A stretch of 64,000 nucleotides of DNA from Coriobacteriia bacterium (GCA_018368455.1 JAGZEG010000004.1:19617-83616), one strand, 5' to 3'. Positions 733-22,956 are shown, counted from the first letter of the stretch. Program-made: numbers and translations. The notes: generated by a model not told the origin, from the sequence alone.

Positions 733-2352
733 CTAGGGGAGAGCGGGGCTGCTCGCGTCGATGAGGGCTACGAGCTCCTCTCGGCTGTGGACGCTGGCCT
801 TGCGATAGATGCGCCGCGTGTGCGACTTGAGCGTTCCGGGCGCGATGCAGAGCTCCCGCTCGATGTCGCTGGGCCCTTTGCCCTGCGCAAGCAGTTGAAG
901 CACCTCCCTTTCGCGTGGGCTCAAGCCGATCCGCGCGGCTAGCTCCTCGCAGGCTTGCCCGAGCACGTCCTGCTCGCTGCGGCCCGCGCCACCTGTCAGC
1001 TCCTCCATGCCGAACAGCGCTGCGCCCCAGCGTGCGTACTCGCGCTCTGTCAGCAGGACGACGCTTGCGACGATGACGAGGATGACGAGCGCTACGAGCA
1101 CCGCTGGGCTGTCAGGGGCCAGCGGCACTAACCCGCGATCCAGCGCCAGCCCCACGCCGTGCCCACCCAGGCTTGTGAGCATGATGAGCTCCTGGATGCT
1201 GCAAAGAAATGCTGCGGACACGCCATAGCGATGTGCCAAGTCGCACAGCAACACGGTGAGCACGAGGAACATCAGCGCGTAGCCCACGCATACGAGCAGA
1301 TCGGCGACGCCGCTGCCCGTCGACAGCGAGGCAAACGTCACGAGCAGCCCGCAGCTCATAAGTACGAACGGCGTGCGGTAGAGATACGTGAAGTCAAACC
1401 GGTGCGAGAAGAAGTACACAAGGCAGAAAAGCGTCATCGATGACAGGAGCACGCCCATGGTAAGCATTCCATCGGCGAAGGGGGCGCTTGCCTGACGCAC
1501 GCCAAGCACGAACTCGTAGACGCCTAGGGCAATAGCGAGGCGCCAGGGGAACTGAACGGCGTGTGTAAAGCCGCCAGGCCGCTCCGATGGGGGGATGCTT
1601 GTGAGCCCCCAGCGTAAGCAGATGTGGGAGAGAATGGGCAGCGCAAGTAAGGCCAGCGCGAGGCGCATGCCGTTCAGGCCGCCGATGAGCCATCCGAGCA
1701 GCGAGCCGAACAGAAAGCCTCCGGCGACATAGAGCACGATGAGAAACGAGCCGAAGCAACTTTGGAGCTCGGCCCACAGCAGGATGCCAAGCGCGATGCC
1801 AAACCCCACGACCAAACCGCCGATCAGGGCGAGCGGCAACGCGGCGCTTTGGGCAAGAGGTTCGCTGCCGGATGGGCCTGCCACGCTCGAAAGAGTGCCT
1901 ACCGCCAGAATGAGCCCTGCCCCGGCGACCATGAGAGCCGTTGCAATCGTCGCGGCGGAGCGACGGTCGCTGAGGGGTAAGAAGCGCCGCCCCGCCGCGA
2001 CGCAGGCGACGAATGCGGGCACCATGCCGATGACGACGATGTCCGGTCCAAGCCATGTGACCCCAGATATACCTGACAGGATGGTTGCGATTTGCCCGGA
2101 TGCGACGTCGTAGAACGCGCGGACAAACGCAAAGCCGAACAGGCATGGAGACAGGAGGCGCAGCTCGGTGAGCCGCCGTCCGACGCGACCTGGGGCGTCG
2201 CTTCCGGGGGGCACGTTGCTGCTCACCGGTATGGCCCGCCGTTCCTGCACGGGGATCGTGCTTGCGGGCAGGCTGTCTGCCTGGGCGGGCACCGGCGAGG
2301 CGCCCCGCATGTCGACGGGGCTGGCGGGGCTTGCGGTGCTGCCGTGGCGCAT
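733..2352 (-). CDS. Membrane-integrated LuxR-family transcriptional regulator (polytopic N-terminal domain plus C-terminal LuxR HTH)
   Basis: The C-terminus 'LSPREREVLQLLAQGKGPSDIERELCIAPGTLKSHTRRIYRKASVHSREELVALI' is a LuxR/GerE HTH. About 400 aa of hydrophobic helices precede it. RBS 'aaaggag' lies upstream of the ATG at 2352. It is divergent from the reductase gene at 2577. Confidence 0.85.
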   Translation of the reverse strand: MRHGSTASPASPVDMRGASPVPAQADSLPASTIPVQERRAIPVSSNVPPGSDAPGRVGRRLTELRLLSPCLFGFAFVRAFYDVASGQIATILSGISGVTWLGPDIVVIGMVPAFVACVAAGRRFLPLSDRRSAATIATALMVAGAGLILAVGTLSSVAGPSGSEPLAQSAALPLALIGGLVVGFGIALGILLWAELQSCFGSFLIVLYVAGGFLFGSLLGWLIGGLNGMRLALALLALPILSHICLRWGLTSIPPSERPGGFTHAVQFPWRLAIALGVYEFVLGVRQASAPFADGMLTMGVLLSSMTLFCLVYFFSHRFDFTYLYRTPFVLMSCGLLVTFASLSTGSGVADLLVCVGYALMFLVLTVLLCDLAHRYGVSAAFLCSIQELIMLTSLGGHGVGLALDRGLVPLAPDSPAVLVALVILVIVASVVLLTEREYARWGAALFGMEELTGGAGRSEQDVLGQACEELAARIGLSPREREVLQLLAQGKGPSDIERELCIAPGTLKSHTRRIYRKASVHSREELVALIDASSPALP

Positions 2353-2576
2353 GACGGTGACTCCTTTCGTGGCGCACCACCTCTGAGCTGGGCGGTTTAC
2401 ATCTCAGGTTACAAGGTTACCACTGGGTGCATCCCGCGTTGATGCTGACGGGACGACTGTGTGCTGCCTACTGTGGGAGCCGTACCGCAGCGGGACACGT
2501 GCGGCGCCGTTGCGCCTGCCTGACATGGTGCTTACGTCCCGTTCGCACATCTTGCCATGTATGTTGAATCGAAAGG

Positions 2577-4550
2577 ATGTTGCCCACCATGATCCGCTCA
2601 AACCAGCTTTCGAACATCTCGCGCCGTGACCTCGTTGCCGCTTCCTCTATCGCTGGCGTTTCCGTCGCCCTGTTCGGCCTGCCGGGCCTTGCTCGCGCTG
2701 CCGAGGGTCCGGCTGCCGGCGACGCCTCGTCCTCGTATGTGCCGGGTACGTACCATGCGAGTGCCGAGGGCAAGTTCGGCCCCATTGCTGTGGACGTGAC
2801 GTTTTCCGAGACGGCCATCACGGGCGTGATTGTGGGCGAGCACGAGGAAACGGCCTTCATCTCTGATCGCGCGCTCCAGGAGATTCCCGCTGCCATTGTC
2901 GAGCGCCAGACGCTTGACATCGATTCCATCACGGGCGCGACGCTGACGAGCTCCGCTCTCGTACGCGCCGTAAGCGACTGTGTTGAACAGGCCGGTGGCG
3001 ATCCGGCCGCGCTCTCTGGCGCTTCGTCTGACTCGGAGCCCGCTGGCGCCGCTCCGGTCGAGCAGGAGCTGGAAGCCGACGTCGTCATTGTGGGTGCTGG
3101 CGCCTCGGGCATGGTCGCGGCGATCTCGGCGGCGCGCATGGGTGCGAGCAAGGTCATTCTGCTCGAGAAGAGCTGCAACGTCGGCGGCAACGCGCTCGTC
3201 TCCGGCGGCTACCTCGAGTACGTTAACGCTCCCGACGAGCTGCGCGAGGACATGACGCCGAGCTATGAGGCTGAGCTCGCTGACGAGCTCGCCCAAGCGC
3301 CCGACTATCTGCCGGCGGAGGATCTTGAGAAGCTGATGGCCGAGTACGAGGCGTGGAAGGAGTCGGGCAGTACGAAGGTGTTCGACAGCATCTATCTCCA
3401 TGCACTGCAGTACGCGCTCCAGGGTGAGGGCAGCTATGACGAGATGCTCAAGACGGCAGAGAACATCGCCGCGCTCGACGAGTGGCTCGTTTCGGAGGAC
3501 TTTGGCTTTAAGAGCCTGTGCGGCATCGTCGGTTACTCGTGGCCGCGCTGGACGTCTCCGAAGCAGGGCGTGTGCGGCCAGGGCTACTTTACGTTCTACG
3601 CTGACGAGATCGAGCGCAACGCCTATCCTGTCGAGATCTATCTCAATACGCCGGCGACGGAGCTTATCGTCGAAGATGGCACGGTGGCGGGCGTCGTGGC
3701 ACAGGGTGAGGACGGTACGACGTATCGCGTGCGCGGCGCGCAGGGCGTCATCCTGGCGACGGGTGGATTCTCGGGCAGTCCGGACATGCTGCGCGAGTAC
3801 AACACGATGTGGCCGTTCAAGGAGGATGAGTACATCCCGACGACGAACTGCTATGGCCACACGGGCGACGGCATCACGATGGGCCTGGCGGCGGGCGGTA
3901 CCGTGGCGCTTATGGACGTGCAGATGCCGTTCCCGATGGCTGACTGCAAAAACTGGACGGACGAGACGACCGTCGGTGACGACGTCGATTGCGTCATCGT
4001 GAACAAGGAAGGCAAGCGCTTCATGAACGAGGTGCTCGACCGCTATACGATGACCGAGAACATCATGGCGCAGACCGACCAGATGATGTTCATGGTGACG
4101 GACGCCGACACGTGCCGCGTCGATGGCGAAAACAACCGCTATGGCCACAGCCTGCAGCGCCTTATTGACCAGGGACAGCTCTACCGTGCTGACACGCTTG
4201 AGGAACTTGCCGAACAGATGGGCTGTGACCCTGCCGTGCTTGTCGATACGGTCGAGCGCTACAACGAGGCTGCGCGCTCCGGCGAGGACCCCGAGTTCGG
4301 CCGCACGACGTTCTCCGAGCTGAGCCCCGTCGAGAAGGCTCCGTTCTACGCGTCTCCACGTACGTGGGCCATGCACATCACCGTCGGTGGCCTCGTCGTG
4401 GATATCCACGACGGTTACAAGGTGCTCGACGAGGCGGGCCAGCCGATTCCCGGCCTGCGCGCCATCGGCGAAACGATCGTCGGCAGCTGCGGCATTGGCG
4501 TTCAGGGCGAGGGCCTGGCCGTCGCGAAGGCGATGTTCATGGAGCGCTAA
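2577..4550 (+). CDS. Tat-exported flavoprotein reductase: N-terminal FMN_bind domain plus FAD-binding fumarate/urocanate-reductase-like domain
   Basis: Twin-arginine signal 'SRRDLVAASSIAGVSVALFGLPGLARA'. FMN_bind flavinylation-type motif 'DSITGATLTS'. Dinucleotide fold 'VVIVGAGASGMVAAISAARMG...LLEKSCNVGGNALVSGG'. The start could also be the ATG at 2589. Confidence 0.85.
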   Translation: MLPTMIRSNQLSNISRRDLVAASSIAGVSVALFGLPGLARAAEGPAAGDASSSYVPGTYHASAEGKFGPIAVDVTFSETAITGVIVGEHEETAFISDRALQEIPAAIVERQTLDIDSITGATLTSSALVRAVSDCVEQAGGDPAALSGASSDSEPAGAAPVEQELEADVVIVGAGASGMVAAISAARMGASKVILLEKSCNVGGNALVSGGYLEYVNAPDELREDMTPSYEAELADELAQAPDYLPAEDLEKLMAEYEAWKESGSTKVFDSIYLHALQYALQGEGSYDEMLKTAENIAALDEWLVSEDFGFKSLCGIVGYSWPRWTSPKQGVCGQGYFTFYADEIERNAYPVEIYLNTPATELIVEDGTVAGVVAQGEDGTTYRVRGAQGVILATGGFSGSPDMLREYNTMWPFKEDEYIPTTNCYGHTGDGITMGLAAGGTVALMDVQMPFPMADCKNWTDETTVGDDVDCVIVNKEGKRFMNEVLDRYTMTENIMAQTDQMMFMVTDADTCRVDGENNRYGHSLQRLIDQGQLYRADTLEELAEQMGCDPAVLVDTVERYNEAARSGEDPEFGRTTFSELSPVEKAPFYASPRTWAMHITVGGLVVDIHDGYKVLDEAGQPIPGLRAIGETIVGSCGIGVQGEGLAVAKAMFMER

Positions 4551-4576
4551 GCCACTGAACGCGGTAGGGTGCTGAC

Positions 4577-4628
4577 GGGCACCCCGGCACAGCCTTCTGC
4601 GGCCTGCCGGGGTGCCCGCTTGTGTTTC
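4577..4628 (+). terminator. Intrinsic terminator after the reductase gene
   Basis: GC-rich hairpin GGGCACCCCGGCA...TGCCGGGGTGCCC followed by a T-rich tail (gcttgtgttt). Confidence 0.6.
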
Positions 4629-4892
4629 GGCCCAACGGATCGCTTCTGCGAGGCCTTTTCGCCGTTGGACTCTTGCTTGCCCGTCATGGCGCGATGGGGG
4701 AGTTGTGGTTGTGCGCTGGCGCGTGCGGCTCGTGGTGGATAATGGAAGCGTGCCGTCCGCCGGCGTGCGGGGCACGGAATGTTGATCGAGGTGTTGACGA
4801 ATATCGGCAATTGCAGAAGGGGCGTCGCGCGGCGAGGCCGCTGCCTCCCGTGCGTGTGCAATGCCGATTGCCGTGGAAGGCGGGGCGAAGGG

Positions 4893-7292
4893 ATGACGCA
4901 GGCGGAAAAGCCGACGGTGAGGAGTCGCTACGTGGCGGCGCATGCGCACCGGGAGGAGGGCGCAAGCCAGGCCGAGACCGGGCGCTCCTCCTCTGGCGAT
5001 GGCCTCTACGCTAGTCGCTCCCGCCGCTCGACGCTTTATGGCGACGAGCCCCGTCCTCGCGGCGCTCGCTATGACGTGCCCCCCGCCTCGTCTGCCGGAA
5101 CGAATGCCGGCGGGGTTTCGGGCGCCCGTTCTGCGCAGACAACCCCCAACAATGCCGCTCGTCCATATGCTCGCCCCGCCGGCGGTAGTTTCACGCCGCG
5201 CGCGGGCGCCCCTGCCCCTGTGCCCGCCGGGCGCCGCTTTGCCCCGCGTGGCAGTAGCGCTCCCGCCGCGCACGCCGCTTCGGCTTCCTCTCGGCGCGTC
5301 ACGTCGCTTGAGGGTCTGCGCACACTCGCCATCCTGTCGGTCGTCGCCTACCACCTGGGCCTTTCGTGGCTGCCGAGCGGCCACATGGGCGTCGTCATGT
5401 TCCTCGTGCTCAGCGGCTACCTCGTGACGTGCTCCGTCGTGCGCGGCTTCGAGCGGGCACGCGATCGTGCCCAGGCCGACGGGACGGTTTTGCGCTTCGG
5501 CGCGGGGCTCGGCGCGTTCTGGTGGCGCCGCTTCAAGCGCATCTGGCCACCCATGATCGCGATGATCGTGCTCGTCGCCTTACTGTGCATTGCGTTTAAC
5601 CACGTGCTGCTCACGAAGATGCGCCCCGACATCGCGCCCGCGCTGCTGGGCTTCGAGAACATCTGGTACATCGTCCACGGCCTGTCGTATTTCGAGCAGA
5701 TCGGGGCGCCTTCGCCGCTGACGCACCTGTGGTACGTCGGCCTCGATGCCCAGCTCTGCGTCGTGGTGCCCCTGCTACTGAGCGCCTTTCTGTACGCCGG
5801 GGCGAGTCGTTCGACTATTCGTCGCGTCTTCCTGGGGCTCGCCCTGGTCTCCGCCGTTCTCATGGGCGTGCTGTTCGACCCGAACGCCGACCCGAGCCGC
5901 GTGTACTACGGGCCGGACACGCGTGCTTTCGCCGTGCTTATCGGCGCGTGGCTGGGCCTCGCGTGGCCCGTCGGCGGCCTGCCGGTGGCGGGGCGCGGCG
6001 CCTTGCTGCGCCTGGGTGCCCGAGGTGTGGCGGCTCTCGGCGGCGTGGCTTTGCTTGGTCTCGTCGCGATTATGGTGTTCGTGCCGAGCGATGCGGCGTT
6101 TTTCTACTACGGGGGCATGGTGCTCGTATGCCTGCTGACGGTGGTGCTGCTCGTCGCCCTGCTCAGCCCGTCCAACCCGTTGGAGCGCCTGTTCTCGCTG
6201 AAGCCCCTCGCGTGGCTGGGCGCGCGCTCCTATGCGCTCTACCTGTGGCACTATCCCCTCATCTACCTGGTGGGGGCAGACGGACCGGCTCCGTGGTGGC
6301 TCAAGCTGCTTGCCGTGGTCCTGTCGGTGGGCGCTGCCGAGGCGACGTGGCTGCTCGTGGAGCGTCCCCTTTCCGGCGGGCGTGTGGCGGCCGGTGTCAC
6401 GCAGTTTGCTGGCTGGGTGCGCCGAGGCCCGCTGCCTGCCGCGGGGACGTTTGCGGCGACGGGCGTCTGCGGTGCCGTGACGCTTGCGGCGCTCGTGGGA
6501 TGTCTTGTCGTGCCCGACAAGGTGCTCGTTCCGAAGGACGCCATCGTGAGCACGGGCGAGGCGGCGGGTCGCGGCATGGACCTTTCCGATCGTGCTCCCG
6601 GGGCGGCTGACGATTCTGCTGTGGACGATGCCGGCGTCCCTGTCGCGGAAGCGCCAGAGGCCACGCCCATCGTCGAGGCACCTATCGCCCCCGACGACGT
6701 CGTGCTGCCTGACGGGTACTTCTCGCTGCAGGCGTCGGACGGCGAGCAGACGGCCGGTCAGTACGACCCCGTGCTCGTCGGTGATTCCGTGCCGGGCGAC
6801 ACGAACTTCTACGACGTGTTCTTTGGCGGCTTCATCGACAGCTACATCGGTCGCCACCCGTTCCAGGCCGTCGACGTGCTGCAGGACTACCTCGACCAGG
6901 GTGTCGTGGGCCACGTCGTCGTGCTCGCTGTGTTCTCAAACAGTCTGGCGACGGCGGAGCAACTCGACCAGCTCGTGGCCGAGGCAGGCCCTGATCGCCA
7001 GGTTTACCTTGTGGGCACCGTGAACCCTGACGGCTTCCAGGACGAGGCCAACGCCGCGCTCATGGACTGCGCCTCGCGCTACGACAACGTGCACTACGTG
7101 GACTGGCCGGCCGTGTGCGCGGGCTATGAGGACGTCTACCTCTACCCCGATGGCACGCACCTCACGCCCGACGGCGCCCCTGTCTACCTCGACATGATCG
7201 CGCGCGCCATCGCCGGCGACGTCGTGGCTGCCGGCGGCTCGATCATCCCGTGGGACGACCCTGCAGCTGAGGATCCGGCTGCGGTGGCATAG
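4893..7292 (+). CDS. Acyltransferase family 3 (OafA/YrhL-like) membrane O-acyltransferase with C-terminal SGNH-like domain
   Basis: 'LRTLAILSVVAYHLGLSWLPSGHMGVVMFLVLSGYLVT' is the AT3 signature. Multiple TM helices follow, then a soluble C-terminal domain ('VLVGDSVPGD...'). The start is placed at ATG 4893 after the purine-rich 'ggaaggcggggcgaaggg'; the track ORF begins at 4779. Confidence 0.8.
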   Translation: MTQAEKPTVRSRYVAAHAHREEGASQAETGRSSSGDGLYASRSRRSTLYGDEPRPRGARYDVPPASSAGTNAGGVSGARSAQTTPNNAARPYARPAGGSFTPRAGAPAPVPAGRRFAPRGSSAPAAHAASASSRRVTSLEGLRTLAILSVVAYHLGLSWLPSGHMGVVMFLVLSGYLVTCSVVRGFERARDRAQADGTVLRFGAGLGAFWWRRFKRIWPPMIAMIVLVALLCIAFNHVLLTKMRPDIAPALLGFENIWYIVHGLSYFEQIGAPSPLTHLWYVGLDAQLCVVVPLLLSAFLYAGASRSTIRRVFLGLALVSAVLMGVLFDPNADPSRVYYGPDTRAFAVLIGAWLGLAWPVGGLPVAGRGALLRLGARGVAALGGVALLGLVAIMVFVPSDAAFFYYGGMVLVCLLTVVLLVALLSPSNPLERLFSLKPLAWLGARSYALYLWHYPLIYLVGADGPAPWWLKLLAVVLSVGAAEATWLLVERPLSGGRVAAGVTQFAGWVRRGPLPAAGTFAATGVCGAVTLAALVGCLVVPDKVLVPKDAIVSTGEAAGRGMDLSDRAPGAADDSAVDDAGVPVAEAPEATPIVEAPIAPDDVVLPDGYFSLQASDGEQTAGQYDPVLVGDSVPGDTNFYDVFFGGFIDSYIGRHPFQAVDVLQDYLDQGVVGHVVVLAVFSNSLATAEQLDQLVAEAGPDRQVYLVGTVNPDGFQDEANAALMDCASRYDNVHYVDWPAVCAGYEDVYLYPDGTHLTPDGAPVYLDMIARAIAGDVVAAGGSIIPWDDPAAEDPAAVA

Positions 7293-7464
7293 CGCGGGGC
7301 AGTGAGTTCGCTGCTCGGCATGGCATGGCAGGGATTATGCGCCTCTGTTGGGGTAGGATGAAACGTACTGCCGACGTCTTCCTTGTGCGCTGCCGATCGG
7401 GTGCGCGCGCAACGGCGTTGGATCCGGCGAGGGACCGCACGCGACCGCAACCAGGGGGCACCGC

Positions 7465-8424
7465 ATGATCGAATATTACAAGACGAGCCTCACGGGCGTT
7501 ACGGAGCGCGTCACTTCTCCGGAGCGCGGCTGCTGGATCAATGTCGTCCAGCCGACGGAGCGAGAGCGCGCCTGGCTCCAGAACGAGGCGGGCATCGTCC
7601 CTGAGTTCGTCCGCTCGGCACTCGATGAGGAGGAGAGCTCGCACATCGACTACGATGACGATGCCGACCAGGTGCTCATCATCGTGGACTGCCCCTCTGT
7701 CGAGGACGAGCAGGAGAAAGAGACACCCACGCTCACGCAGTACGACACGCAGCCCCTCTCGGTGCTGTTCCTGCGCGATAAGGGCATGCTTGTCACGATC
7801 AGCCTGCACGGCAGCGTCATCGTTGACGACTTCGCCGCGGGCCGCGTGCGCCAGATCGACACGACGCGCCGCGCCCGCTTCCTGCTGCAGTTGCTTTTGC
7901 GCATCTCCCAGCAGTACCTCGTCTACCTGCGCAGCATCGACCGCCAGTTCTCCAAGGCCGAAAAGCAACTGCACGCCACCATGCGCAACGAGGAGCTCAT
8001 CAAGATGCTCGGCCTCGAGAAGTCGCTCGTCTACTTCTCCATCTCGCTCAAGGCTGACGAGACGACACTCAACCGCATCATGGGCGGGCGCATCATCAAG
8101 CTCTACGAGGAGGACCAGGAGCTACTCGATGACGTCCTCATCGAGATCCACCAGGCCATGGAGATGTGCAAGATCTACTCGGACATTCTCACGAAGACGA
8201 TGGACGCGTTCAGCAGCGTCATCAGCAACAACCTGAACAACGTCATGCGCGTGCTCACGACGATCACGATCGTCATGGCCATCCCCACGATCATCTTCAG
8301 CTTCTACGGTATGAACGTGGGCGACCTGCCCGAGTCTTCGACGTGGCTGTTCCCAGCGCTGCTCTCGCTCGTGCTCTGCGTTATCGCCGTCGTGTTCTTC
8401 TGGCGCAAGAACATGCTCAAGTAG
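7465..8424 (+). CDS. corA: CorA-family magnesium/cobalt transporter
   Basis: C-terminal two TM helices with the 'FYGMNV' (GMN) signature; approx 319 aa, typical CorA size. Confidence 0.85.
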   Translation: MIEYYKTSLTGVTERVTSPERGCWINVVQPTERERAWLQNEAGIVPEFVRSALDEEESSHIDYDDDADQVLIIVDCPSVEDEQEKETPTLTQYDTQPLSVLFLRDKGMLVTISLHGSVIVDDFAAGRVRQIDTTRRARFLLQLLLRISQQYLVYLRSIDRQFSKAEKQLHATMRNEELIKMLGLEKSLVYFSISLKADETTLNRIMGGRIIKLYEEDQELLDDVLIEIHQAMEMCKIYSDILTKTMDAFSSVISNNLNNVMRVLTTITIVMAIPTIIFSFYGMNVGDLPESSTWLFPALLSLVLCVIAVVFFWRKNMLK

Positions 8425-8535
8425 GGAAGCCTGTTCCGAGGGCTTGTGCTCTGGATATGTCTGTTGGTCTTGTAGTTTAACGATAAACGATATATTCTTA
8501 TCGTGTACCGATAATCATTGACGAGGAGGTGCACG

Positions 8536-9288: not shown

Positions 9289-9297
9289 GGGGCGGCC

Positions 9298-9519
9298 GTG
9301 ATTGTGCTGAGACTCGACCGTGTGCTTGCCGACCGTAAGATCGCCTCGCGCGACCTGGCGCAACTCGTGGGCATTTCCGAGGTGAACATCTCGCGCATCA
9401 AGACGGGCAAGGTGAGTGCTATCCGGTTCTCGACGCTCGACGCTCTCTGCCGCGAGCTTGGCTGCCAGCCCGGCGACTTGCTCGAGTATGTGCCTGACAC
9501 CGAGGGTGGGGAGGGCTAG
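9298..9519 (+). CDS. Small XRE/YozG-like helix-turn-helix transcriptional regulator
   Basis: 'LDRVLADRKIASRDLAQLVGISEVNISRIKTGKVSAIRFSTLDALCRELGCQPGDLLEY' is a Cro/C1-type HTH. 73 aa, 9 nt after the upstream gene. Confidence 0.8.
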   Translation: MIVLRLDRVLADRKIASRDLAQLVGISEVNISRIKTGKVSAIRFSTLDALCRELGCQPGDLLEYVPDTEGGEG

Positions 9520-11547: not shown

Positions 11548-11580
11548 CTTTGCGCGCGAGGGGTTCGTGCACGTGAGATG

Positions 11581-12099: not shown

Positions 12100-12100
12100 G

Positions 12101-14548: not shown

Positions 14549-14796
14549 GCTGGGCGCGGGCGCGTCCTGCCCGAGGCGCGGCGCGGGGCTCGGCCGATGG
14601 GACGAGGCATCCTGATCATGATGACGCAGGGGCGACGGCACACGATGCTGCCGCCCCTGCGTTTTTCGCATCCAGGGTGCGGCGCCTTTCTTTCGGGCCG
14701 AAAAGACCGCACGGGCTGCAGCAAAAGACGGCAATCCGAGACGTCCCTGGGGGATGGGGCCTGGTGCGCTGCCAGAGCAGGAGGAGTTGGGCCTGC

Positions 14797-14940
14797 TTTG
14801 GTCAAAAGGGTGCCGCTTTGCGAGGATTTAGGGTGGGCTTCTCCCACCGTACGTTTTTTGTGCCGCGCTTACCTGGGGGTTTGTGGTGCCGTCGGGCGGA
14901 GATGAGGCGGTGATCCTCGCAAAGCAGGGGTGTTTTGACC
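14797..14940. repeat. MITE-like unit: imperfect 28-bp terminal inverted repeats flanking an approx 83-bp core with a hairpin/T-run
   Basis: Left arm GGTCAAAAGGGTGCCGCTTTGCGAGGAT (14800-14827). The reverse complement of the right arm (14912-14940) is GGTCAAAACACCCCTGCTTTGCGAGGAT; 22/28 match by hand alignment. The core has GGTGGG-cttc-TCCCACC followed by TTTTTT. It shares the TTGCGAGGAT core with the 25.1-kb repeats. Confidence 0.4.
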
Positions 14941-15127
14941 ATGCGAAGGCCTTTCGGTGCGTCTTTGGTTCAAGATGGGCGGTTTCGCCGGAAAGGATCG
15001 CTGGCGTCGACCCATCTGCACGGCCTGACATCTGGGCTTAGACCCGCTCGCTCCGACTTTGCGAGAAAAGAAGGCCTGCCCGTGTCGCCCCATCCCGGTA
15101 GAATGGCGCCAGGGAACGAGCGCAGAA

Positions 15128-16765
15128 ATGAGGGCAGGCATGGGGATGGGAAAGACGCGGGCGATGCGTTTGGGATCGGCACCGACGGTGGGCGAGGATG
15201 TCCGCGAGCAGACGGGCCCGAGGTCCATGGGCGGTACATCGTTGCCGAGCCTCGTGGCGCTGGGCGTGGGCATTGGCTGCATGTGGCTGCCGATCCACTA
15301 CTCGTTCTACCGCTATAGCATCGTCGGCGAGGGCCCCATCTACGCGTTGGCGCTTGCCGTCATGGCGCTTGCATGCGTGCTCGCTATCGCCCTGCGCTCG
15401 CGCCTGTCCGCCTGGCTTGCTCGCCGGCCCGTGCTCGTCGTGGGCGCCTCGCTGCTGACGCTCGCGGGCAACGGCTTGCTGCTCGGCCTGCCTTACCTGC
15501 CGCTGCCGCCGGGGCCTGCCGTCGCCATCCGCGTTGCGGCCGTCTCGCTGTACGCCGCGACGTTCGTGCTGCTGTTCTTTGCCTGGGTGCAGCGCATGGC
15601 TGACCTGATGTTCCAGGTGCCCATTGTCACGAGCGTCGGCGTTGTTGGGCTGTCCGTTACGGCGGTGTTCCTGCTGGTCAACCTGAGTTACGGAACGCCG
15701 CTCTACCAGGGCGCGGCTCTCGTGTGCCTCGCGGTGTCGGGCGCGTGCTGGCAGGCGTGCGCCATCGAGCCCGTCGAGGTCTCCGGCGGCCTGCGCCTGT
15801 TGCCGGCCGGTCGCACGATGCGCGAGTGGTCGCTGCTGTTCGTCGCGTTTCTGCTCGTGACGCTGCTTCACTCGGTGACGTTCTCGGCGGGCGGCCAGAG
15901 CGCGGAGCAGTCCGACTTCCCGACGCTGATGTTGCATCTCGTGCTCGTGCTGTTCGCGATGCCGTTCGCGGCGCTGCTGTGTGCGGGCCGCATGCGTGCT
16001 ATCTCGCCCCAACGCTCCCTGTCGCTCGTTGTCTCGCTCATCGTGGCATCTTACCTGGGGCTGCTGTGCGCGACGGCCATCCCGGGTGTCGTGACAGACG
16101 AGGGGCATCTCGCTGCGCTGACTGTCGTTCTGCGCACGCTGCGCATCTTCATCTTCGTCATGCTCATGACGATGTGCTACCAGGATGCCGCCGCTCCCGC
16201 CTCGACGTTTGGCCTGCTGTTCCTGCTGGTGGAGATCGTTGCCAACGCGCTGTGCTACCTCGTGGCTCCCGTCGTGTTCGCTGCGATCCCCGCCGAGCCA
16301 CACGACGTGTTCGTGCCGACATCGAGTGCCGTGGCGCTCGTGCTCATCGTGGTGCTAGGCGGCTTCTTGATGATGTACTTTGCCGGCAGCGGGCGCTTCG
16401 CGGCAGAGACGGATGCGCGTTTGCGGGATGCGAGCCGCCTGCCGGAGGAGCCTGAACCCGCGGGCTCCGATGCCGGCACTCCCTCTGAGACGCCTGCGAC
16501 CGAGCCGGCAGGGGAGACGGGGCCGTCAGATCGCGGCTCCCTGCGTCGCGAGCGCTGCCGAGAGATTGCGACTGCACACGGCCTGACGGAGCGCGAGGCC
16601 GACATCATGTACTACCTGAGCCTCGGCTTCTCGGTGAAGAAGATCGCCGACATGCTCGTCATCTCCGCAAACACCGTGGCGACCCACTCGGCGCGTCTCT
16701 ATCGCAAGCTCGATGTCCATGCGCGCCAGGAGCTCATCGATCTCGTCGATGGGGCGGATTTGTAG
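15128..16765 (+). CDS. Membrane-integrated LuxR-family transcriptional regulator
   Basis: C-terminal 'LTEREADIMYYLSLGFSVKKIADMLVISANTVATHSARLYRKLDVHARQELIDLV' (LuxR HTH) follows approx 400 aa of TM helices. The start is uncertain (track ORF 15059; ATGs at 15128 and 15227). A 'TAGAAT' -10-like box lies at 15098-15103. Confidence 0.8.
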   Translation: MRAGMGMGKTRAMRLGSAPTVGEDVREQTGPRSMGGTSLPSLVALGVGIGCMWLPIHYSFYRYSIVGEGPIYALALAVMALACVLAIALRSRLSAWLARRPVLVVGASLLTLAGNGLLLGLPYLPLPPGPAVAIRVAAVSLYAATFVLLFFAWVQRMADLMFQVPIVTSVGVVGLSVTAVFLLVNLSYGTPLYQGAALVCLAVSGACWQACAIEPVEVSGGLRLLPAGRTMREWSLLFVAFLLVTLLHSVTFSAGGQSAEQSDFPTLMLHLVLVLFAMPFAALLCAGRMRAISPQRSLSLVVSLIVASYLGLLCATAIPGVVTDEGHLAALTVVLRTLRIFIFVMLMTMCYQDAAAPASTFGLLFLLVEIVANALCYLVAPVVFAAIPAEPHDVFVPTSSAVALVLIVVLGGFLMMYFAGSGRFAAETDARLRDASRLPEEPEPAGSDAGTPSETPATEPAGETGPSDRGSLRRERCREIATAHGLTEREADIMYYLSLGFSVKKIADMLVISANTVATHSARLYRKLDVHARQELIDLVDGADL

Positions 16766-17065
16766 CTGTTCGTCGTAAAAGCCATCATTTCCGCAGCTCA
16801 AATGTGTCAAGTATCACCCTCATATTCGCGTACATGATTTCATGTGATGCGATCTTCATGGACGAAAAGCCCCTCGGATCATGGATTTCCGAGGTCGGCG
16901 TACGGTGGCGTTCGGCGTAGATTTCGACTCGTCAACGCGGAGCAGCCGCGGGGCACGCAAGCGAGCGCACGACATGCGCAGGCTTGCCCCCGCGGACGCA
17001 TCCGACATACGTACGACGTCCGAGCGGGCCGGCGCCCGCCGGGCATGACGAGAAGGAGAGTCCCC

Positions 17066-19144
17066 ATGAACGCCACCACCTCCACCCCCAAGCTCGAGCG
17101 CACCCGCCGCCAGTTCATCAAGACGGCTGGCGCCACCCTTCTGACGAGCGCCGCCGTCGCCGCCATGGCCGGCACCGGCTCGCAGGCCCTGGCCGCCTCG
17201 AAGTCGGCTGCAAACGACACGGCCACGAGCGTCGCTGACATCACGTGGGACGAAGAGTGCGATGTCCTCGTCGTTGGCGCTGGCCTGGCCGGCACGACGG
17301 CCGCCATCACGGCGGCCCAGAACGGCGCGAAGGTCCTGCTGCTCGAGAAGAGCCCGTGGATGAATGGTGGCGGCAACTCCAAGTACAGCTCGGGCTGGGC
17401 GCTGTTCACGTACAACGTCGAGGGCACGGCCACCTATCTTAAGAACTGCCGCGGCGACTTCGACGCCTCGCCCGACGCCATCTACGAGGCCTTCGCTGCC
17501 AACCTGGCCGAGAGCGACGACTGGGTGCTCGGCCTCAACCCGCCCGAGAACAACATGGGCTACTCCGCGACGCCCGAGGCCTCCTCTGACTACGGCGAGT
17601 ACAACGAGCACGAGGGCTCGCAGTGGAACGCCTGCATCTGCATGCAGCCTATGAACAAGCCGGGCACCTATCGTCACCTGCAGTTCTTCCTGATGGACAA
17701 GATCCGCGACGACTTTGCCGACCTCATCACCGAGAAGGTCAGCGCCCCTCTGACGGCCCTGGTGCAGGACCCGCAGTCCAAGGCGGTCATCGGCGGTGTC
17801 TACGAGTTCGAGGGCGCCTCGGTCTACGTCAAGGCCAACGCCGGCGTCGTCATGGCCTGTGGCGGCTTCGAGGCTGACCGCACGATGTGCCAGGACTATC
17901 TCTCCATGCCCGTGTACCATACGGTCGCTGCTCCGTTCAACACCGGTGACGGCCACCGCATCTGCGCCAAGCTGGGCGCCGACATGTGGCACATGAACTC
18001 GCTGGCCGGCGGCTGGACGAACTGCGTTGCGCTCGACGGCAGCAGCCACGGCACGTATCGCTGCCTCGAGAAGCAGATGGGCATCACCGTGGGCATCAAC
18101 GGCCGCCGCTTCTATATGGACTGGGACGGCTGCACGACGTACGACTACGACTTCGGCCCTGGCTCCGACGCCAGCGTGCACGTGGGCTGCCGCCACGGCC
18201 ACCAGCAGTTCGGCGGCGAGTTCACGCACCTGCCGATGCCCGGCGTGACGTGGTTCGTCTACGACTCGGCGGCTGCTGCTGACGAGAAGACGCCGGCCTA
18301 CCACAACATGAGCGGCGACCCCGTGGCCGACGGCTACGGCTACGTGGCCGACACGCTCGAGGAGCTCGCCGAGCAGATGGGCGTGCCTGCCGAGGAGCTC
18401 ACGACGACGGTGGCGCAGTGGAACGAGGCCGTCGCGGCTGGCAAGGACCCGTACTACTTCCGTCCCGATCACACGCTGACCCCCATCGAGACCGCCCCGT
18501 TCTACGCGGTGAAGTGCGAGCCCGAGCTGCTGAACACCGACGGTGGCCCCCGTCGTGACGAGCATGCCCAGATCCTCGACATCGACGGCGAGCCCATCCC
18601 CGGCCTGTTCTCGGCTGGCGAGTTTGGCAGCGTGTGGTGCCGCGACTACCAGGGCGGCGGCAACCTGGGCGAGTGCCTGGCCTGGGGCCGTCTGGCGGCT
18701 CGCAGCGCCCTGGGCATCGAGGTTGACCCGACGCAGTTCGAGCCGACGAACGAGGTCGAGGACGCCTTCCTGGCGGCCGGCGGCAAGCAGGGCGCGCTCA
18801 ACCAGTACACCGACGCGTTCAAGGAGGCTCGTGCCGCGGAGCGCGAGGCCGGCGCGAAGGCTGACGCCGAGGCCACGTACAAGGACGGCAGCTACGAGGG
18901 CGTGGCGTACGGCATGGGCGAGGAGGTGCCGGTGACGGTCGTCGTGAGCGGCGGCAAGATCTCCGAGGTTACCGTTGGCGACAACCAGGAGACGGCTGGC
19001 ATCGCCGACAAGGCCATCGAGCAGCTGCCGCCGGCGATCGTCGAGGGCAACGGCGTCAACGGCCTGGACTGCATCAGCGGCGCGACCGTGACGTCGCTGG
19101 CGATCATGAACGCCGTCGAGGCAGCGCTCACCCAGGCAAAGTAA
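17066..19144 (+). CDS. Tat-exported flavoprotein reductase: N-terminal FAD-binding fumarate-reductase-like domain plus C-terminal FMN_bind domain
   Basis: Tat signal 'TRRQFIKTAGATLLTSAAVAAMAGTGSQALA'. 'DVLVVGAGLAGTTAAITAAQNGAKVLLLEKSPWMNGGGNS' is the FAD fold. The C-terminal 'VTVVVSGGKISEVTV...GLDCISGATVTSLAIMNAV' is FMN_bind. RBS 'gaaggagag' lies upstream of ATG 17066. Confidence 0.85.
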   Translation: MNATTSTPKLERTRRQFIKTAGATLLTSAAVAAMAGTGSQALAASKSAANDTATSVADITWDEECDVLVVGAGLAGTTAAITAAQNGAKVLLLEKSPWMNGGGNSKYSSGWALFTYNVEGTATYLKNCRGDFDASPDAIYEAFAANLAESDDWVLGLNPPENNMGYSATPEASSDYGEYNEHEGSQWNACICMQPMNKPGTYRHLQFFLMDKIRDDFADLITEKVSAPLTALVQDPQSKAVIGGVYEFEGASVYVKANAGVVMACGGFEADRTMCQDYLSMPVYHTVAAPFNTGDGHRICAKLGADMWHMNSLAGGWTNCVALDGSSHGTYRCLEKQMGITVGINGRRFYMDWDGCTTYDYDFGPGSDASVHVGCRHGHQQFGGEFTHLPMPGVTWFVYDSAAAADEKTPAYHNMSGDPVADGYGYVADTLEELAEQMGVPAEELTTTVAQWNEAVAAGKDPYYFRPDHTLTPIETAPFYAVKCEPELLNTDGGPRRDEHAQILDIDGEPIPGLFSAGEFGSVWCRDYQGGGNLGECLAWGRLAARSALGIEVDPTQFEPTNEVEDAFLAAGGKQGALNQYTDAFKEARAAEREAGAKADAEATYKDGSYEGVAYGMGEEVPVTVVVSGGKISEVTVGDNQETAGIADKAIEQLPPAIVEGNGVNGLDCISGATVTSLAIMNAVEAALTQAK

Positions 19145-19177
19145 GGCGCGAACTCCGGGGATCGCGAGTCATAGCGT

Positions 19178-19230
19178 GAAAACGGGACGGCCCCACAGCG
19201 CGACAAACGCTGCGGGGCCGTCCCTTTGTG
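19178..19230. terminator. Bidirectional intrinsic terminator between convergent reductase genes
   Basis: Hairpin GGGACGGCCCCACAGCG-loop-CGCTGCGGGGCCGTCCC, flanked by an A-run upstream (gaaaac) and a T-run downstream (tttgtgg). Confidence 0.6.
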
Positions 19231-19256
19231 GAGCGATAGGCTATCGGGTGGGCGGC

Positions 19257-21212
19257 TTACGCCTCGGCGAACATCCCCGAGCCGGCGGCGAAGCCCAGAG
19301 CCATCGAGCTCACGCCGGACATGCCTACCGTCAGCTCACCGGCGGCATAGAGGCCCTCGATGCTCGTGCCGTCCTCGCGGACGATCTGCGAGAAGTCGTC
19401 GGTCACGACGCCACCCTCGGTGATGTGAGCGGCCCACGTGCGCGGGGAGGCGTAGAACGGCGGGTTCTCGATGGGGCTGTCGGCGGTGAAGATCATGCGG
19501 CCGAAGTCGGGATCCTCGCCGTTGCGGGCGATCTCATTGTAGCGCTCGACCGTTGCCGCAAACGTGGCCGGGTCACAGCCGATCTGCTCGGCGAGCTCCT
19601 CGATGGTGTCGGCGCGATAGAGCTGGCCCTGGTCGAGCAGGCGCTGGATGTCGCGGCCGTAGTAGTTCTTGTCACCCTCGACGCGGCAGGTGTCCTTGTC
19701 GCTGATGAGGTAGAGCACCTGGTCCGGCTGCTGCATGAGGGCCTCGGTCATCGTGTAGCGGTCGAGCGTCTCGTCCATGAAGCGCTCGCCGTTGGCGTTC
19801 ACGAGCAGGCAGTCGGTGTCGGCGCCCACCGTGGTCTCATCCGTGCCGTTCTTCACGTCAGCGAACGGGAACATCATGAGCGAGTCCATCATGGCCAGCG
19901 CTGCGCCCTCGCCCTGCGCCAGCTTGATGCCGTCGCCCTGGTGGCCGAACACGTTCGTCGTGGGGATGATGGTGTTCTCGTCCCACGGCCACATCGTGTT
20001 GTACTCAAGCAGCATGTCGGGGTTGCCCGAGAAGCCGCCCGTTGCCAGCAGCGCGCCGTGCGTCGCGCGGATGTTGTACGTCGTGCCGTCGTCGGCAACG
20101 GCCTTCAGGCCCACGACGCGGTCGCCGTCCTTGATGAGCTCGGTCGCGGGCGTGTCGAGCATGATCTCGATCGGGTAGTCGTTCTGCTCGATCTGGCGCT
20201 CGAAGAAGTCGAAGTAGCCCTGGCCGCAGACGCCCTCTGCCGGCGCGGACCAGTGCGGCCACGGATAGCCGACGATGCCGATGCACGGCTTCCACTCAAA
20301 GTTGTTCTCGTCCAGGAACGCGTCGAAGTCCGAGACGCACTGGGCAAAGCTCAGCGAACCGTAGTAGCCGTCGGCGCCGTAGAGCAGGCACTCCTGCAGC
20401 GCCATGAGCTCCTCGCAGTCGAACAGCGTCGTGTCGCCCGAGGCCAGGTACTCGTCGTATTTCTTCTGGATCTTCCCGAGCTCGTCGGCGGGGATCTCCT
20501 GGGCGATGGGGTTGGCCAGGTCGGACTCGAGCTGGTTGGTGAGCTCGGGCGTCATGGGAACGCGCAGCTCGGTCGGGGCGTTCACGTACTCGAGGTAGCC
20601 GCCGGACACGAGGGCGTTGCCGCCGACATTGCTGCCCTTCTCCAGGACGATGACCTTGCTCGCGCCGTTCTTGGCCGCGCCAAGGGCGGCGCCCATGCCT
20701 GCCGCGCCGGCGCCGGCAATGACGAGGTCGCACTCGAGGTCAACAACGTCGGTCGACTTCTCGGGGCGCACGTAGTTGGCCTTCATGGCCTCGACGTCGC
20801 CACCGGCCTGCTCGACGCAGTCGGCCACGGCCGTCATGATGGCGGCACACGTGATCGTGCAGCCCGTGATCGTGTCGATGCCCAGCGCCTGCTGCTCGAT
20901 GATCGTGGCGGGGATCTCGGCGAAGGCGCGGTCAGACACGCGCTCCGTCTCGGCGTGGTCCTTGACGACGATGTCGGTCAGCTCGCTGTCGGTGAACGTC
21001 ACCTCGAGCGTGAGGGGGCCGAACTTGCCCTGGCCCGTGCCCGTGTACGTTCCAGCGGTGAACGTCAGCGCGTTGGCCGGCGCGGCGTGGGCCGTGCGAA
21101 CGGGGGCAATTGTCGGCAGGCCGAGGACGGCCATCCCCACGCCGGCAAGCGTGGCTCCGGCAACGAACGTGCGGCGATTCATGCCCGTGACCTGCGCGAT
21201 GGAATCCTTCAT
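19257..21212 (-). CDS. Tat-exported flavoprotein reductase (FMN_bind plus FAD domain), paralog of 2577..4550
   Basis: 'NRRTFVAGATLAGVGMAVLGLPTIAPVRTAHA' Tat signal. FMN_bind with variant motif 'DTITGCTIT'. 'DLVIAGAGAAGMGAALGAAKNGASKVIVLEKGSNVGGNALVSGG'. Long collinear similarity to the 2577 protein (e.g. 'GGFSGNPDMLLEYNTMWP', 'PFYASPRTWA'). RBS 'agaggag'. Confidence 0.85.
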   Translation of the reverse strand: MKDSIAQVTGMNRRTFVAGATLAGVGMAVLGLPTIAPVRTAHAAPANALTFTAGTYTGTGQGKFGPLTLEVTFTDSELTDIVVKDHAETERVSDRAFAEIPATIIEQQALGIDTITGCTITCAAIMTAVADCVEQAGGDVEAMKANYVRPEKSTDVVDLECDLVIAGAGAAGMGAALGAAKNGASKVIVLEKGSNVGGNALVSGGYLEYVNAPTELRVPMTPELTNQLESDLANPIAQEIPADELGKIQKKYDEYLASGDTTLFDCEELMALQECLLYGADGYYGSLSFAQCVSDFDAFLDENNFEWKPCIGIVGYPWPHWSAPAEGVCGQGYFDFFERQIEQNDYPIEIMLDTPATELIKDGDRVVGLKAVADDGTTYNIRATHGALLATGGFSGNPDMLLEYNTMWPWDENTIIPTTNVFGHQGDGIKLAQGEGAALAMMDSLMMFPFADVKNGTDETTVGADTDCLLVNANGERFMDETLDRYTMTEALMQQPDQVLYLISDKDTCRVEGDKNYYGRDIQRLLDQGQLYRADTIEELAEQIGCDPATFAATVERYNEIARNGEDPDFGRMIFTADSPIENPPFYASPRTWAAHITEGGVVTDDFSQIVREDGTSIEGLYAAGELTVGMSGVSSMALGFAAGSGMFAEA

Positions 21213-21474
21213 GGTGCAAGCTCCTCTCTACAACCTGTTTTCAGGATGTGCTGCGTGCGGTGCACGGTCATTAGATTCGTCACAATGGACGTTCGAAGCA
21301 TCCCACGGGTGGAAAGTCAGGGTGTAACCTTGTAACCCGACGGTGTAACCCAATCCTCTGAGCTGGGATAACGATGTTTTGCGGGGAATGGGGCCACGCG
21401 CTGTACACCGGGCTGAGAAGTGGTGTACCCCTAGTACCTTGAAGCGCTGAGGTCGTGATGGTATAACGCCTTAC

Positions 21475-22956
21475 ATGGATATCACGGGGAAAGATAGGGG
21501 CGAGTCGGCCGCGACGAGCAGCGCGTCGGGGATCCTTGCGACGTGGCGCGCGAGGCTGTCCGCCCCGCACCCGATACGCCCACTTTTCTTTGGCTTTGCT
21601 TTCAGCCGGGCCGCCAACGATCTGCTCGGCCAGGGGTTCCTGACTGCGAGGCCCGCTGATCCCATCTGGGGAGATGACCTCTACTCGGGGTTCATGCTCC
21701 TCGCGTTTCTGACCTTTGTCGTTCTTGCGCGCAAGATCGCACCGCTGTACAACCGCCGCCCGGCCTTCGTCGCCATGCTCGCCCTGTCTGTCGCGGCGGC
21801 CATCGCGGATTTTCTGGGCGGCATGTTGGGGTACCCGCTGCCGCTCGTTGCCACGGCGGCCCTACTCGCGGGGTTTTCCTCGGCGCTCTCTATCTTGTTG
21901 TGGGCGGAGTTTCACAGCTGCCTCGAGCCGTTCGACATCATCTTCTACGTCTCGGGCGCCTTTCTGCTCGGAGGCCTGGGTTCCTGGATGCTCGGCGACG
22001 CGACTGGCCTGCGCAGGCTCGCGATACTGCTTGTGCTGCCGATGCTGTCGATCATCTGCCTGAGGCACAACTTCGCCCGCATGAGTCCGCTGGACCTGCC
22101 ACATCCTGCGTGGGGTCGGATGCGCATCCCTTGGAGCCTGATCGCCGTCCTGGGCATCTACGAGTTCACGTTCGGCATACAGGAGACGTCCATCGAGTTC
22201 TCGAGCGGCGCCTACACGTGCGGGACGCTGCTGGCTCCCGTGATTTCCCTGCTGTTCCTGTGCGTCCTCTCACGCAAGATGAGCTTCACGGCTATCTATC
22301 GAACGCCGTTTGCGCTCATGCTGTGCGGGCTTGCCCTTACGCCGCTGTCGTCCCCGCTTGCGGGGCCGTTCCCTGACCTGCTTGTCTCGACGGGGTATTC
22401 GTTCATCTTCCTGCTGCTGACGTTTCTCATGTGTGATCTCTCACGGCGTTACGGGGTATCGGTTCTTCTGCTGTGCGGCATAGAGGAGCTGACGGCGGCG
22501 TTTCGCTTGCTGGCGCATCGCGTGCCCGGCCTCATGCAGGGGGGCGCGTTGCCGCCATTCGTGGACGAGGGGTTCGTCTCCGCCGCGCTGACGTTGGGCA
22601 TCGTCGTGGCGAGCGTCGTTTTGCTAGCGGACCACCGCGCCTCGGACAGCTGGGGCGCCTCGTTCATGGGTGTGCACGTCAAGGGCCAGGACGGGCGTGA
22701 CGAGGCGTGGCTCGTGCAGAAGTGCGCCGAGCTCGCCAGGGCATACGGCCTGAGCCCCCGCGAGCTCGAGGTGCTCGAGTACATCGCGCGTGGCAAGACG
22801 TCGGCGTACATCGAGGACAAGCTCGTCATCGCGAACGGCACGCTCAAGTCGCACACGCGCCGCATCTACGCCAAGCTGGGCGTCCACAGCCGAAAGGAGC
22901 TACTCGGCATGATCGAGGCACACGAAGAGGATGCGGCTGCCCCTAGCGTGTCGTAA
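21475..22956 (+). CDS. Membrane-integrated LuxR-family transcriptional regulator
   Basis: C-terminal 'LSPRELEVLEYIARGKTSAYIEDKLVIANGTLKSHTRRIYAKLGVHSRKELLGMI' follows a polytopic N-domain collinear with the 733..2352 protein ('FFGFAFSRAANDL' vs 'LFGFAFVRAFYDV'). It is divergent from the reductase at 21212. Confidence 0.8.
   Translation: MDITGKDRGESAATSSASGILATWRARLSAPHPIRPLFFGFAFSRAANDLLGQGFLTARPADPIWGDDLYSGFMLLAFLTFVVLARKIAPLYNRRPAFVAMLALSVAAAIADFLGGMLGYPLPLVATAALLAGFSSALSILLWAEFHSCLEPFDIIFYVSGAFLLGGLGSWMLGDATGLRRLAILLVLPMLSIICLRHNFARMSPLDLPHPAWGRMRIPWSLIAVLGIYEFTFGIQETSIEFSSGAYTCGTLLAPVISLLFLCVLSRKMSFTAIYRTPFALMLCGLALTPLSSPLAGPFPDLLVSTGYSFIFLLLTFLMCDLSRRYGVSVLLLCGIEELTAAFRLLAHRVPGLMQGGALPPFVDEGFVSAALTLGIVVASVVLLADHRASDSWGASFMGVHVKGQDGRDEAWLVQKCAELARAYGLSPRELEVLEYIARGKTSAYIEDKLVIANGTLKSHTRRIYAKLGVHSRKELLGMIEAHEEDAAAPSVS

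Follow-up and report, generated by a model that had tools for sequence, protein, structure and literature searches.

Bacterial genomes in which secreted flavin or molybdopterin reductases number from 30 to more than 100 have been described by Little et al. (bioRxiv 10.1101/2022.12.26.521950), who found that 64 reductase genes of Eggerthella lenta adjoin transmembrane (TM) regulators and that the substrate of a reductase can be predicted from its induction. For the regulators themselves, Dong et al. 2022 (PMC9734109) found that E. lenta DSM 2243 has 83 TM LuxR proteins, of which 50 are encoded close to flavin enzymes. They also showed by genetics that three with 12 TM segments, DadR, HcdR and CadR, are substrate-dependent activators of the adjacent reductase gene, an action which requires the TM domain as well as the DNA-binding domain. 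Here we analyse a stretch of 64,000 nucleotides from a Coriobacteriia bacterium (GCA_018368455.1, JAGZEG010000004.1:19617-83616; contig C7:19617-83616 of the genome), hereafter the window, with positions counted from its first letter. Three pairs of genes lying between positions 733 and 22,956 very probably constitute three independent, substrate-inducible modules, each made up of a membrane sensor and an extracytoplasmic reductase, which belong to a respiratory arsenal of the Eggerthellaceae type.

The source genome (3.03 Mb in 37 contigs, 98% complete, 65% GC) has its closest named protein relatives in Adlercreutzia, Gordonibacter, Eggerthella, Raoultibacter and Slackia, at 55-80% identity. 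The regulators are named LuxR1-3 and carry a helix-turn-helix (HTH) domain, while the enzymes, Red1-3, carry a twin-arginine translocation (Tat) signal and domains for flavin mononucleotide (FMN) and flavin adenine dinucleotide (FAD). Each of the six genes is an open frame, at the following positions:

733-2352, minus strand: LuxR1, a regulator of 539 amino acids, with a polytopic domain at about residues 60-440 and a GerE/LuxR HTH at 477-529 (Pfam E 1.7e-13)
2589-4550 (alternative start 2577), plus strand: Red1, 653 amino acids (657 from 2577), with a Tat signal, FMN_bind at 66-137 and FAD_binding_2 at 168-646
15140-16765, plus strand: LuxR2, 541 amino acids, with 12 TM helices in an AlphaFold2 (AF2) model and a GerE HTH (Pfam E 2.2e-15)
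17066-19144, plus strand: Red2, 692 amino acids, with a Tat signal, FAD_binding_2 placed first and FMN_bind at the C-terminus (616-688)
19257-21212, minus strand: Red3, 651 amino acids, with a Tat signal, FMN_bind at 63-134 and FAD_binding_2 at 162-635
21475-22956, plus strand: LuxR3, 493 amino acids, with 12 predicted TM helices (40-385), a linker helix and a GerE HTH at 426-477 (Pfam E 8.4e-15)

Modules 1 and 3 are divergent pairs and module 2 is a tandem pair, the gaps between regulator and reductase being 224-236 bp, 262 bp and 300 bp, respectively. An earlier note on this DNA had placed three such modules within 22 kb, and the open frames, the Pfam domains and the motif-read signals bear this out; its module bounds hold overall, with likely starts amended to 2589 for Red1, 15140 for LuxR2 and 17066 for Red2. 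Proteins in the database begin at the same positions as Red2, Red3 and the three regulators, the start of Red1 at 2589 is favoured by the spacing of its ribosome-binding site and by database protein P0102, and LuxR1 has a ribosome-binding site, AAAGGAG, 8 nt 5' of its ATG. That the regulators join a polytopic domain of about 400 amino acids to a LuxR HTH agrees with the Pfam GerE matches, a hydropathy scan and the AF2 models. The FMN_bind and FAD domains that the same note had assigned to each enzyme are present in all three, with the order of the two reversed in Red2.

In the mechanism that we favour, the regulator, a 12-TM protein whose membrane domain resembles the major facilitator superfamily (MFS), would sense a small organic molecule at the membrane, and its cytoplasmic LuxR HTH would switch on the promoter of the adjacent reductase gene by binding a family-specific upstream site, for which GGTTACA direct repeats are the candidates in the case of LuxR1 and LuxR3 and ACATGA-TT-TCATGT in the case of LuxR2. 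The reductase would be exported by the Tat system in its folded state and its FMN_bind domain flavinylated outside the cell by ApbE, so that electrons would pass from the membrane to FMN, then to FAD and finally to the substrate, the probable reaction, judging by the family, being the reduction of a C=C or similar bond. The idea, already expressed in the earlier note, that the membrane LuxR proteins are plausible ligand sensors is supported by the genetics of the three 12-TM LuxRs of E. lenta (PMC9734109).

The genomic setting was determined by a census in which the six-frame open reading frames (ORFs) of the whole genome were searched with the three enzymes and the three HTH domains. This returned 101 reductase paralogues (PF00890, at least 400 amino acids), about one per 30 kb, with a twin-arginine (RR) motif near the N-terminus in 91 of them (by a loose regular expression) and a fused FMN_bind domain in 31 (14 N-terminal, 17 C-terminal). 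There are 80 LuxR-HTH ORFs, all but two of them (78) polytopic, and 55 of the 101 reductase genes have a polytopic LuxR gene within 600 bp, in 38 cases divergent and in 17 tandem; the genome also carries two ApbE flavin-transferase genes and one TatC gene. The numbers of paralogues, of RR motifs and of adjoining polytopic LuxR genes confirm what the earlier note had recognised as a respiratory-like reductase arsenal of the Eggerthellaceae type.

The arsenals of Little et al. (UrdA, CrdA-D and IrdA of E. lenta; CirA-D of Holdemania filiformis) likewise consist of PF00890 proteins with signal peptides and more than 30 paralogues (about 101 here), and their enzymes, like Red1-3, are neighbours of transmembrane regulators and fall into highly sub-branched clades, a pattern also seen in the tree of the reductase paralogues of this genome. 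The E. lenta LuxRs with 10-12 TM segments have, as here, their genes directly beside a reductase gene and number dozens per genome (83 versus 78 here), and DadR, HcdR and CadR can be likened to LuxR1-3 by architecture, an N-terminal 12-TM domain of about 400 amino acids followed by a C-terminal GerE/LuxR HTH. They differ in their targets: the three E. lenta regulators control molybdopterin catechol dehydroxylases, whereas LuxR1-3 adjoin flavin reductases. Cgr1/Cgr2 of E. lenta (Koppel et al. 2018, PMC5953540) provides a further parallel: its FAD reductase belongs to the same superfamily and is of the secreted Tat type, and the operon includes a TM LuxR. The design is therefore already published and very common, and the three pairs are further examples of it, with nothing new in kind.

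Nor is the locus unusual for its genome, in which it is ordinary. Frames of 22.2 kb with at least three complete modules cover 1.5% of genome positions, and those with at least three reductases 6%; the clustering of three modules thus exceeds chance only mildly, and part of it arises because modules 1 and 3 are duplicates.

A point absent from the earlier note is that the three modules are not equivalent. LuxR1 and LuxR3 share 41% identity over 475 amino acids, the whole membrane domain included, and are each other's closest paralogues within the genome; Red1 and Red3 are 53% identical and, as a tree of 100 paralogues shows, group with the paralogue at C25:87826 in a single clade of enzymes that have FMN_bind at the N-terminus. 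As the genes are paralogous in both roles and both pairs are divergent, modules 1 and 3 evidently derive from the duplication of a whole module, and they therefore probably handle related compounds. Module 2, on the other hand, is unrelated to them and of separate origin: LuxR2 can be aligned with LuxR1 and LuxR3 by BLASTP and hhalign over the HTH only, with no similarity in the membrane domain, and the identity between Red2 and Red1 is 27%. Red2 shares its additional FMN_bind domain at the C-terminus only with orthologues of at least 68% identity, while its relatives at 55% identity or less are FAD-only proteins of 540-555 amino acids, a trait which recalls Cgr2 and to which Red2 itself adds the FMN_bind domain. 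In the genome tree its sister paralogue, C20:4415-6259, is also FAD-only, so that the fusion in Red2 looks recent; N- and C-terminal FMN_bind states are scattered in this tree and the C-terminal state is common in the genome.

Inheritance was surveyed by a scan of GTDB species genomes, which returned 23 loci. At 15 of these, a Red1/Red3-like reductase (55-80% identity) has a divergent upstream LuxR1/3-like gene (37-52% identical, at least 84% coverage); the 15 belong to an uncultured Coriobacteriia metagenome-assembled genome (79%), E. sinensis, Raoultibacter, Gordonibacter, Adlercreutzia and Slackia. The subtype of the regulator tracks that of the enzyme, LuxR1-like genes accompanying the two closest Red1-like enzymes (L001, L017) and LuxR3-like genes all four Red3-like enzymes, and Red3 orthologues at 76-80% identity are found in Adlercreutzia, Gordonibacter and Slackia. 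Homologues at 47% identity or less, including that of Holdemania filiformis, have no such regulator at their loci. For module 2, each of the four human-gut metagenome loci examined has a LuxR2-like gene (48-63% identical) in tandem directly upstream, with differing flanks. These loci indicate that regulator and reductase are inherited as a unit, with their arrangement kept across genera.

That the three modules instead form a dedicated pathway, in which three reductases act in series on one compound, is highly improbable. Two of the enzymes are paralogous and all three modules fit inside 22 kb, but a density of this kind is reached at 1.5% of genome positions because the genome has 55 modules, and the three are separated by genes unrelated to them (an AT3 acyltransferase, CorA, a family-5 solute-binding protein and an ABC-F ATPase). 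In other genomes the orthologues of Red1, Red2 and Red3 lie in differing contexts, with no shared synteny, and the one-pathway idea was rejected on this ground. Within the GTDB family set of 19 species, moreover, orthologues of Red2 occur in only 3 of the 18 other genomes and are lacking in the genome of the same genus, which marks module 2 as accessory. We therefore retain the reading of three independent modules, each with its own sensor.

Candidate regulatory sites are present in the control regions of modules 1 and 3:

2394-2421, plus strand: candidate operator of the LuxR1/3 type in module 1, direct repeats GGTTTACA-N5-GGTTACA-A-GGTTACC pointing towards Red1
21323-21350, minus strand: candidate operator of the LuxR1/3 type in module 3, GGTTACA-N6-GGTTACA-A-GGTTACA, with spacings of 13 and 8, pointing towards Red3 and laid out as in module 1
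2467-2474: -10-like CCTACT/TACTGT, about 45 bp downstream of the module 1 repeats
2380-2392, strand not assigned: first copy of the 13-mer CCTCTGAGCTGGG, an exact match to the module 3 copy, inverted relative to the genes
21355-21367, strand not assigned: second copy of CCTCTGAGCTGGG, in the module 3 control region

Exact copies of GGTTAC, from one to three in number, are found in 17 of 17 orthologous LuxR1/3-Red1/3 control regions, always directed towards the reductase gene and spaced by 8 or 12-14 bp. Control regions with a single exact copy mostly have a degenerate GGTTTACA alongside, and a -10-like CATACT lies about 45 bp downstream of the repeats in the orthologous regions. Of the hexamer GGTTAC the whole genome has only 377 copies, and tandem pairs at a spacing of 7-15 bp number only three, all of them in modules 1 and 3 (0.2 expected); no such pair was found outside the control regions in 298 kb of loci, or in six control loci. 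When the 18 other family genomes were searched blindly with the pattern, 11 of 17 hits fell between a LuxR1/3-family regulator and a divergent reductase, the regulators concerned having 28-51% identity across the membrane domain. Throughout the LuxR1/3-family alignment the recognition helix, GTLKSHTRRIY, is unchanged. The GGTTACA direct repeats are accordingly put forward as the candidate operator of LuxR1 and LuxR3, and since both the recognition helices and the operators are nearly identical, modules 1 and 3 may cross-regulate.

A second element may be shared more widely. The 12-mer CTGAGCTGGGAT, related to CCTCTGAGCTGGG, has seven copies in the genome, six of which, in one orientation or the other, are no more than 210 bp upstream of a reductase gene; those beyond modules 1 and 3 are at C23:9454, C25:38324, C25:87683, C25:191724 and C25:239718. 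This pair of sequences may represent a promoter element or the site of a common arsenal regulator. In the regions scanned (2300-4900 and 14500-23100) no canonical sigma-70 promoters were detected, which fits activator-dependent promoters, and terminators were likewise uninformative.

For module 2, a different set of candidates was obtained from the spacer between LuxR2 and Red2:

16832-16845, plus strand: palindrome ACATGA-TT-TCATGT, conserved in the LuxR2-Red2 spacer, candidate for LuxR2
16878-16895, plus strand: block ATCATGGATTTCCGAGGT, conserved in the same spacer, candidate for LuxR2
16918-16923, plus strand: -10-like TAGATT, after ATCATGGATTTCCGAGGT and upstream of Red2

The palindrome and ATCATGGATTTCCGAGGT are kept in the spacers of the four orthologous metagenome loci, the remainder of which cannot be aligned. 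The recognition helix of the LuxR2 family, NTVATHSARLY, is unlike that of LuxR1 and LuxR3, and in the proposed mechanism LuxR2 would bind ACATGA-TT-TCATGT.

Outside the C-terminal GerE domain (E 2e-13 to 2e-15) the regulators have no further Pfam domain. A crude hydropathy scan gives 8-12 membrane segments. Of the AF2 models, that of LuxR3 (15-sequence alignment; pLDDT 79, pTM 0.72) has 12 TM helices, a linker helix and the HTH, and that of LuxR2 (12-sequence alignment; pLDDT 73, pTM 0.65) also has 12 helices. In Foldseek searches of the PDB, all 50 matches listed for each model are MFS transporters with a probability of 1.0, among them VMAT1/2, the monocarboxylate transporter SfMCT, NorA, MdfA, OxlT, MelB and MCT1. 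Matches at E of 0.001 or below number 32 for LuxR3 and 59 for LuxR2, the E values starting from 1.6e-5 for LuxR3 (about 2e-5 for both), with target-normalised TM-scores of 0.45-0.64 over about 380-470 columns (0.5-0.64 among the matches listed for LuxR3). Basic loops after TM2, TM6, TM8 and TM10 fit a topology with both termini inside and the HTH in the cytoplasm. With moderate confidence, then, the membrane domains of LuxR3 and LuxR2 are predicted to be MFS-like in fold. The paper of Dong et al. (PMC9734109) names neither an operator nor a fold of the TM domain, makes no mention of MFS or transporters, and calls mechanism and origin unclear; our literature search found no later characterisation of these clades and no description of TM-LuxRs as MFS proteins.

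A transporter fold raises the question of whether the polytopic LuxRs are working importers which regulate only secondarily, or whether they regulate genes other than the adjacent reductase. In favour of this are the fold predicted for both modelled membrane domains and the presence of CTGAGCTGGGAT in several reductase promoters, which hints at an additional shared regulator. Either reading is nevertheless unlikely, since the Pfam MFS models match none of the three regulators (the only hit being a weak one of LuxR1 to TMEM144, E 0.005), and since exported reductases do not require their substrate to be imported. The two genes of a pair have been inherited and duplicated together, the conserved repeats point at the reductase promoter, and in E. 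lenta it is the neighbouring gene whose activation was demonstrated genetically (PMC9734109). A sensor acting on the adjacent reductase gene remains the explanation that we prefer.

How such a sensor might work can be considered by analogy. UhpC of Escherichia coli and Snf3/Rgt2 of yeast are transceptors of the MFS fold, which sense an external solute and drive transcription via separate partner proteins, whereas the TM-LuxRs join their DNA-binding domain straight to the MFS-like one within a single protein; the likeness is one of function and does not imply membership of the same family. We tentatively suggest, as a possibility that falls somewhat short of being probable, that TM-LuxRs are MFS-fold one-component transceptors with subfamily-specific operators, in which a transporter-derived ligand pocket has been fused directly to a DNA-binding domain, and that the two sensors and two reductases of modules 1 and 3 possibly make up a cross-wired circuit.

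With regard to the enzymes, Pfam assigns FAD_binding_2 (PF00890) to Red1, Red2 and Red3 with 170, 141 and 164 bits (E 6e-41 to 1e-49) and FMN_bind to all three with E of 3e-12 to 2e-11. Direct reading and a regular expression identify, at each N-terminus, an RR motif, a hydrophobic stretch and an AxA site: SRRDLV followed by ARA/A in Red1, TRRQFIK followed by ALA/A in Red2 and NRRTFV followed by AHA/A in Red3, the stroke marking the presumed cleavage point. The predicted flavinylation acceptors are Thr122 of Red1, in DSITGAT, and Thr674 of Red2, in DCISGAT; in Red3 the acceptor motif is DTITGCT (residues 113-119, window 20856-20867), with Thr119 as the putative acceptor.

The best solved relatives of Red1 and Red3 (140 and 125 bits) are two Shewanella enzymes, the urocanate reductase UrdA (PDB 6T85) and the fumarate reductase flavocytochrome c3 (Fcc3, PDB 1QJD), which have the same FAD fold and, in the case of UrdA, also an N-terminal FMN_bind domain. 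The Red1/3 clade shares with both the equivalents of the catalytic, proton-donating Arg402 and of His504 of Fcc3 (Arg489 and His600 of Red1), while His365 is replaced by Phe452 and Arg545 is lost, no arginine being found at the HGANR position; Arg489, His600 and Phe452 are unchanged in ten members of the clade. As the His365 and Arg545 equivalents are lost, the dicarboxylate/urocanate binding site is absent from Red1 and Red3. In Red2, compared with flavocytochrome c, His504 is replaced by Leu and Arg545 by Tyr. The arginine pair of fumarate and urocanate reductases (Arg402 and Arg545 of Fcc3) is therefore incomplete in both clades examined, in which respect Red1-3 are unlike the clade-1 enzymes of Little et al., and none of them can be tied to a named enzyme. 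UrdA and Fcc3 are only remote relatives, the flavocytochrome c model TIGR01813 giving Red1, Red2 and Red3 scores of 207, 153 and 212 bits, all below the cut-off of 285. From the incomplete pair and the scores below the cut-off we infer that Red1-3 are not fumarate or urocanate reductases.

An alternative which we regard as improbable is that Red1-3 are dehydrogenases or detoxifying enzymes resembling 3-ketosteroid dehydrogenase (KstD), with a metabolite being oxidised or modified without energy conservation. In its favour are the presence of 3-ketosteroid dehydrogenases among the solved relatives at similar scores and the substitutions at the canonical substrate-binding arginine, which is missing in Red1 and Red3 and is a tyrosine in Red2, KstD-type enzymes having a catalytic tyrosine. 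The tyrosine is, however, conserved at the same position in the proven, non-urocanate cinnamate reductase clades as well (Little et al., bioRxiv 10.1101/2022.12.26.521950). Signal peptides are lacking in KstD-type enzymes, to judge from part of Suppl. Table 1 of the same work, and Tat export, a fused FMN_bind domain for electron entry and ApbE genes are together hallmarks of membrane-fed extracytoplasmic reductases (Little et al.). Reduction outside the cytoplasm thus remains our preferred function for Red1-3.

For substrate identity, no NCBIfam curated model reaches its cut-off for any of the three enzymes and the PDB relatives are remote only, so that linking them to a characterised enzyme was given up. 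As far as database comparison can tell, none of them clusters tightly with a characterised reductase, and the statement of the earlier note that substrate identity cannot be read from sequence stands. A homologue of Red1 and Red3 from Holdemania filiformis DSM 12042 (L020, NZ_GG657551.1; 646 amino acids, 43% identical) has a lipoprotein-type signal (LSGC) in place of the Tat signal and no polytopic LuxR neighbour. It was considered as CirA, CirC, CirD or CrdD, and the published residue numbers fit none of these.

Several observations weigh against the interpretation given here. The models of the sensors are of moderate quality (pLDDT 79 and 73), the other four LuxR2 models scored 52-60, and with TM-scores of about 0.5 the MFS assignment is made at the level of the fold. 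A reversed-pattern control gave 15 hits in the family genomes compared with 20 for the GGTTAC pattern; the raw counts being similar, the signal rests on the location of the hits and not on their number. The Tat signals were called from the motif alone, without a dedicated predictor. Finally, Red3 has TGCT where the canonical flavinylation motif is [ST]GA[ST]; this is kept in all 34 clusters of Red3 orthologues of at least 75% identity, a relative at 72% having TGAT, and is therefore a trait fixed in this set of orthologues rather than an error.

Among the compounds reduced by gut Eggerthellaceae are drugs, dietary polyphenols and host metabolites, and every orphan reductase represents a possible new transformation. 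The Red1 and Red3 groups, which occur across genera with their own sensors, are good targets for induction screens with metabolite panels. Reporters could make use of the candidate operators as handles, and the same sites could offer a route to reading TM-LuxR regulons. Should the operator code prove true, the regulons of the dozens of orphan TM-LuxRs in each genome would become predictable from sequence, and the MFS-like fold offers a concrete hypothesis for ligand sensing, the question left open by Dong et al. The candidate operators, the module duplication and the MFS-like fold are modest new additions, which make these regulators experimentally approachable.

As for the surroundings of the modules, no fourth one was found at 23-64 kb among the ten longest frames scanned. 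A minus-strand frame of 450 amino acids with no Pfam match shares 14 nt with the 3' end of LuxR3 and is followed by one of 212 amino acids (region 22943-24930), and a terminator-like hairpin with a T-run lies at 14832-14848, within the 590 bp that separate the ABC-F gene from LuxR2. Two more FMN_bind-fused reductases are encoded at C7:5104-7140 and C7:13602-16097, not more than 20 kb before the start of the window, around which 5 of the 31 such reductases of the genome fall within about 41 kb. Elsewhere in the genome, two small proteins with a double FMN_bind domain, at C23:64957-65595 (212 amino acids) and C23:140354-141028 (224 amino acids), are encoded directly beside FAD-only reductases and may be separate electron-entry partners of the kind represented by PplA of Listeria.

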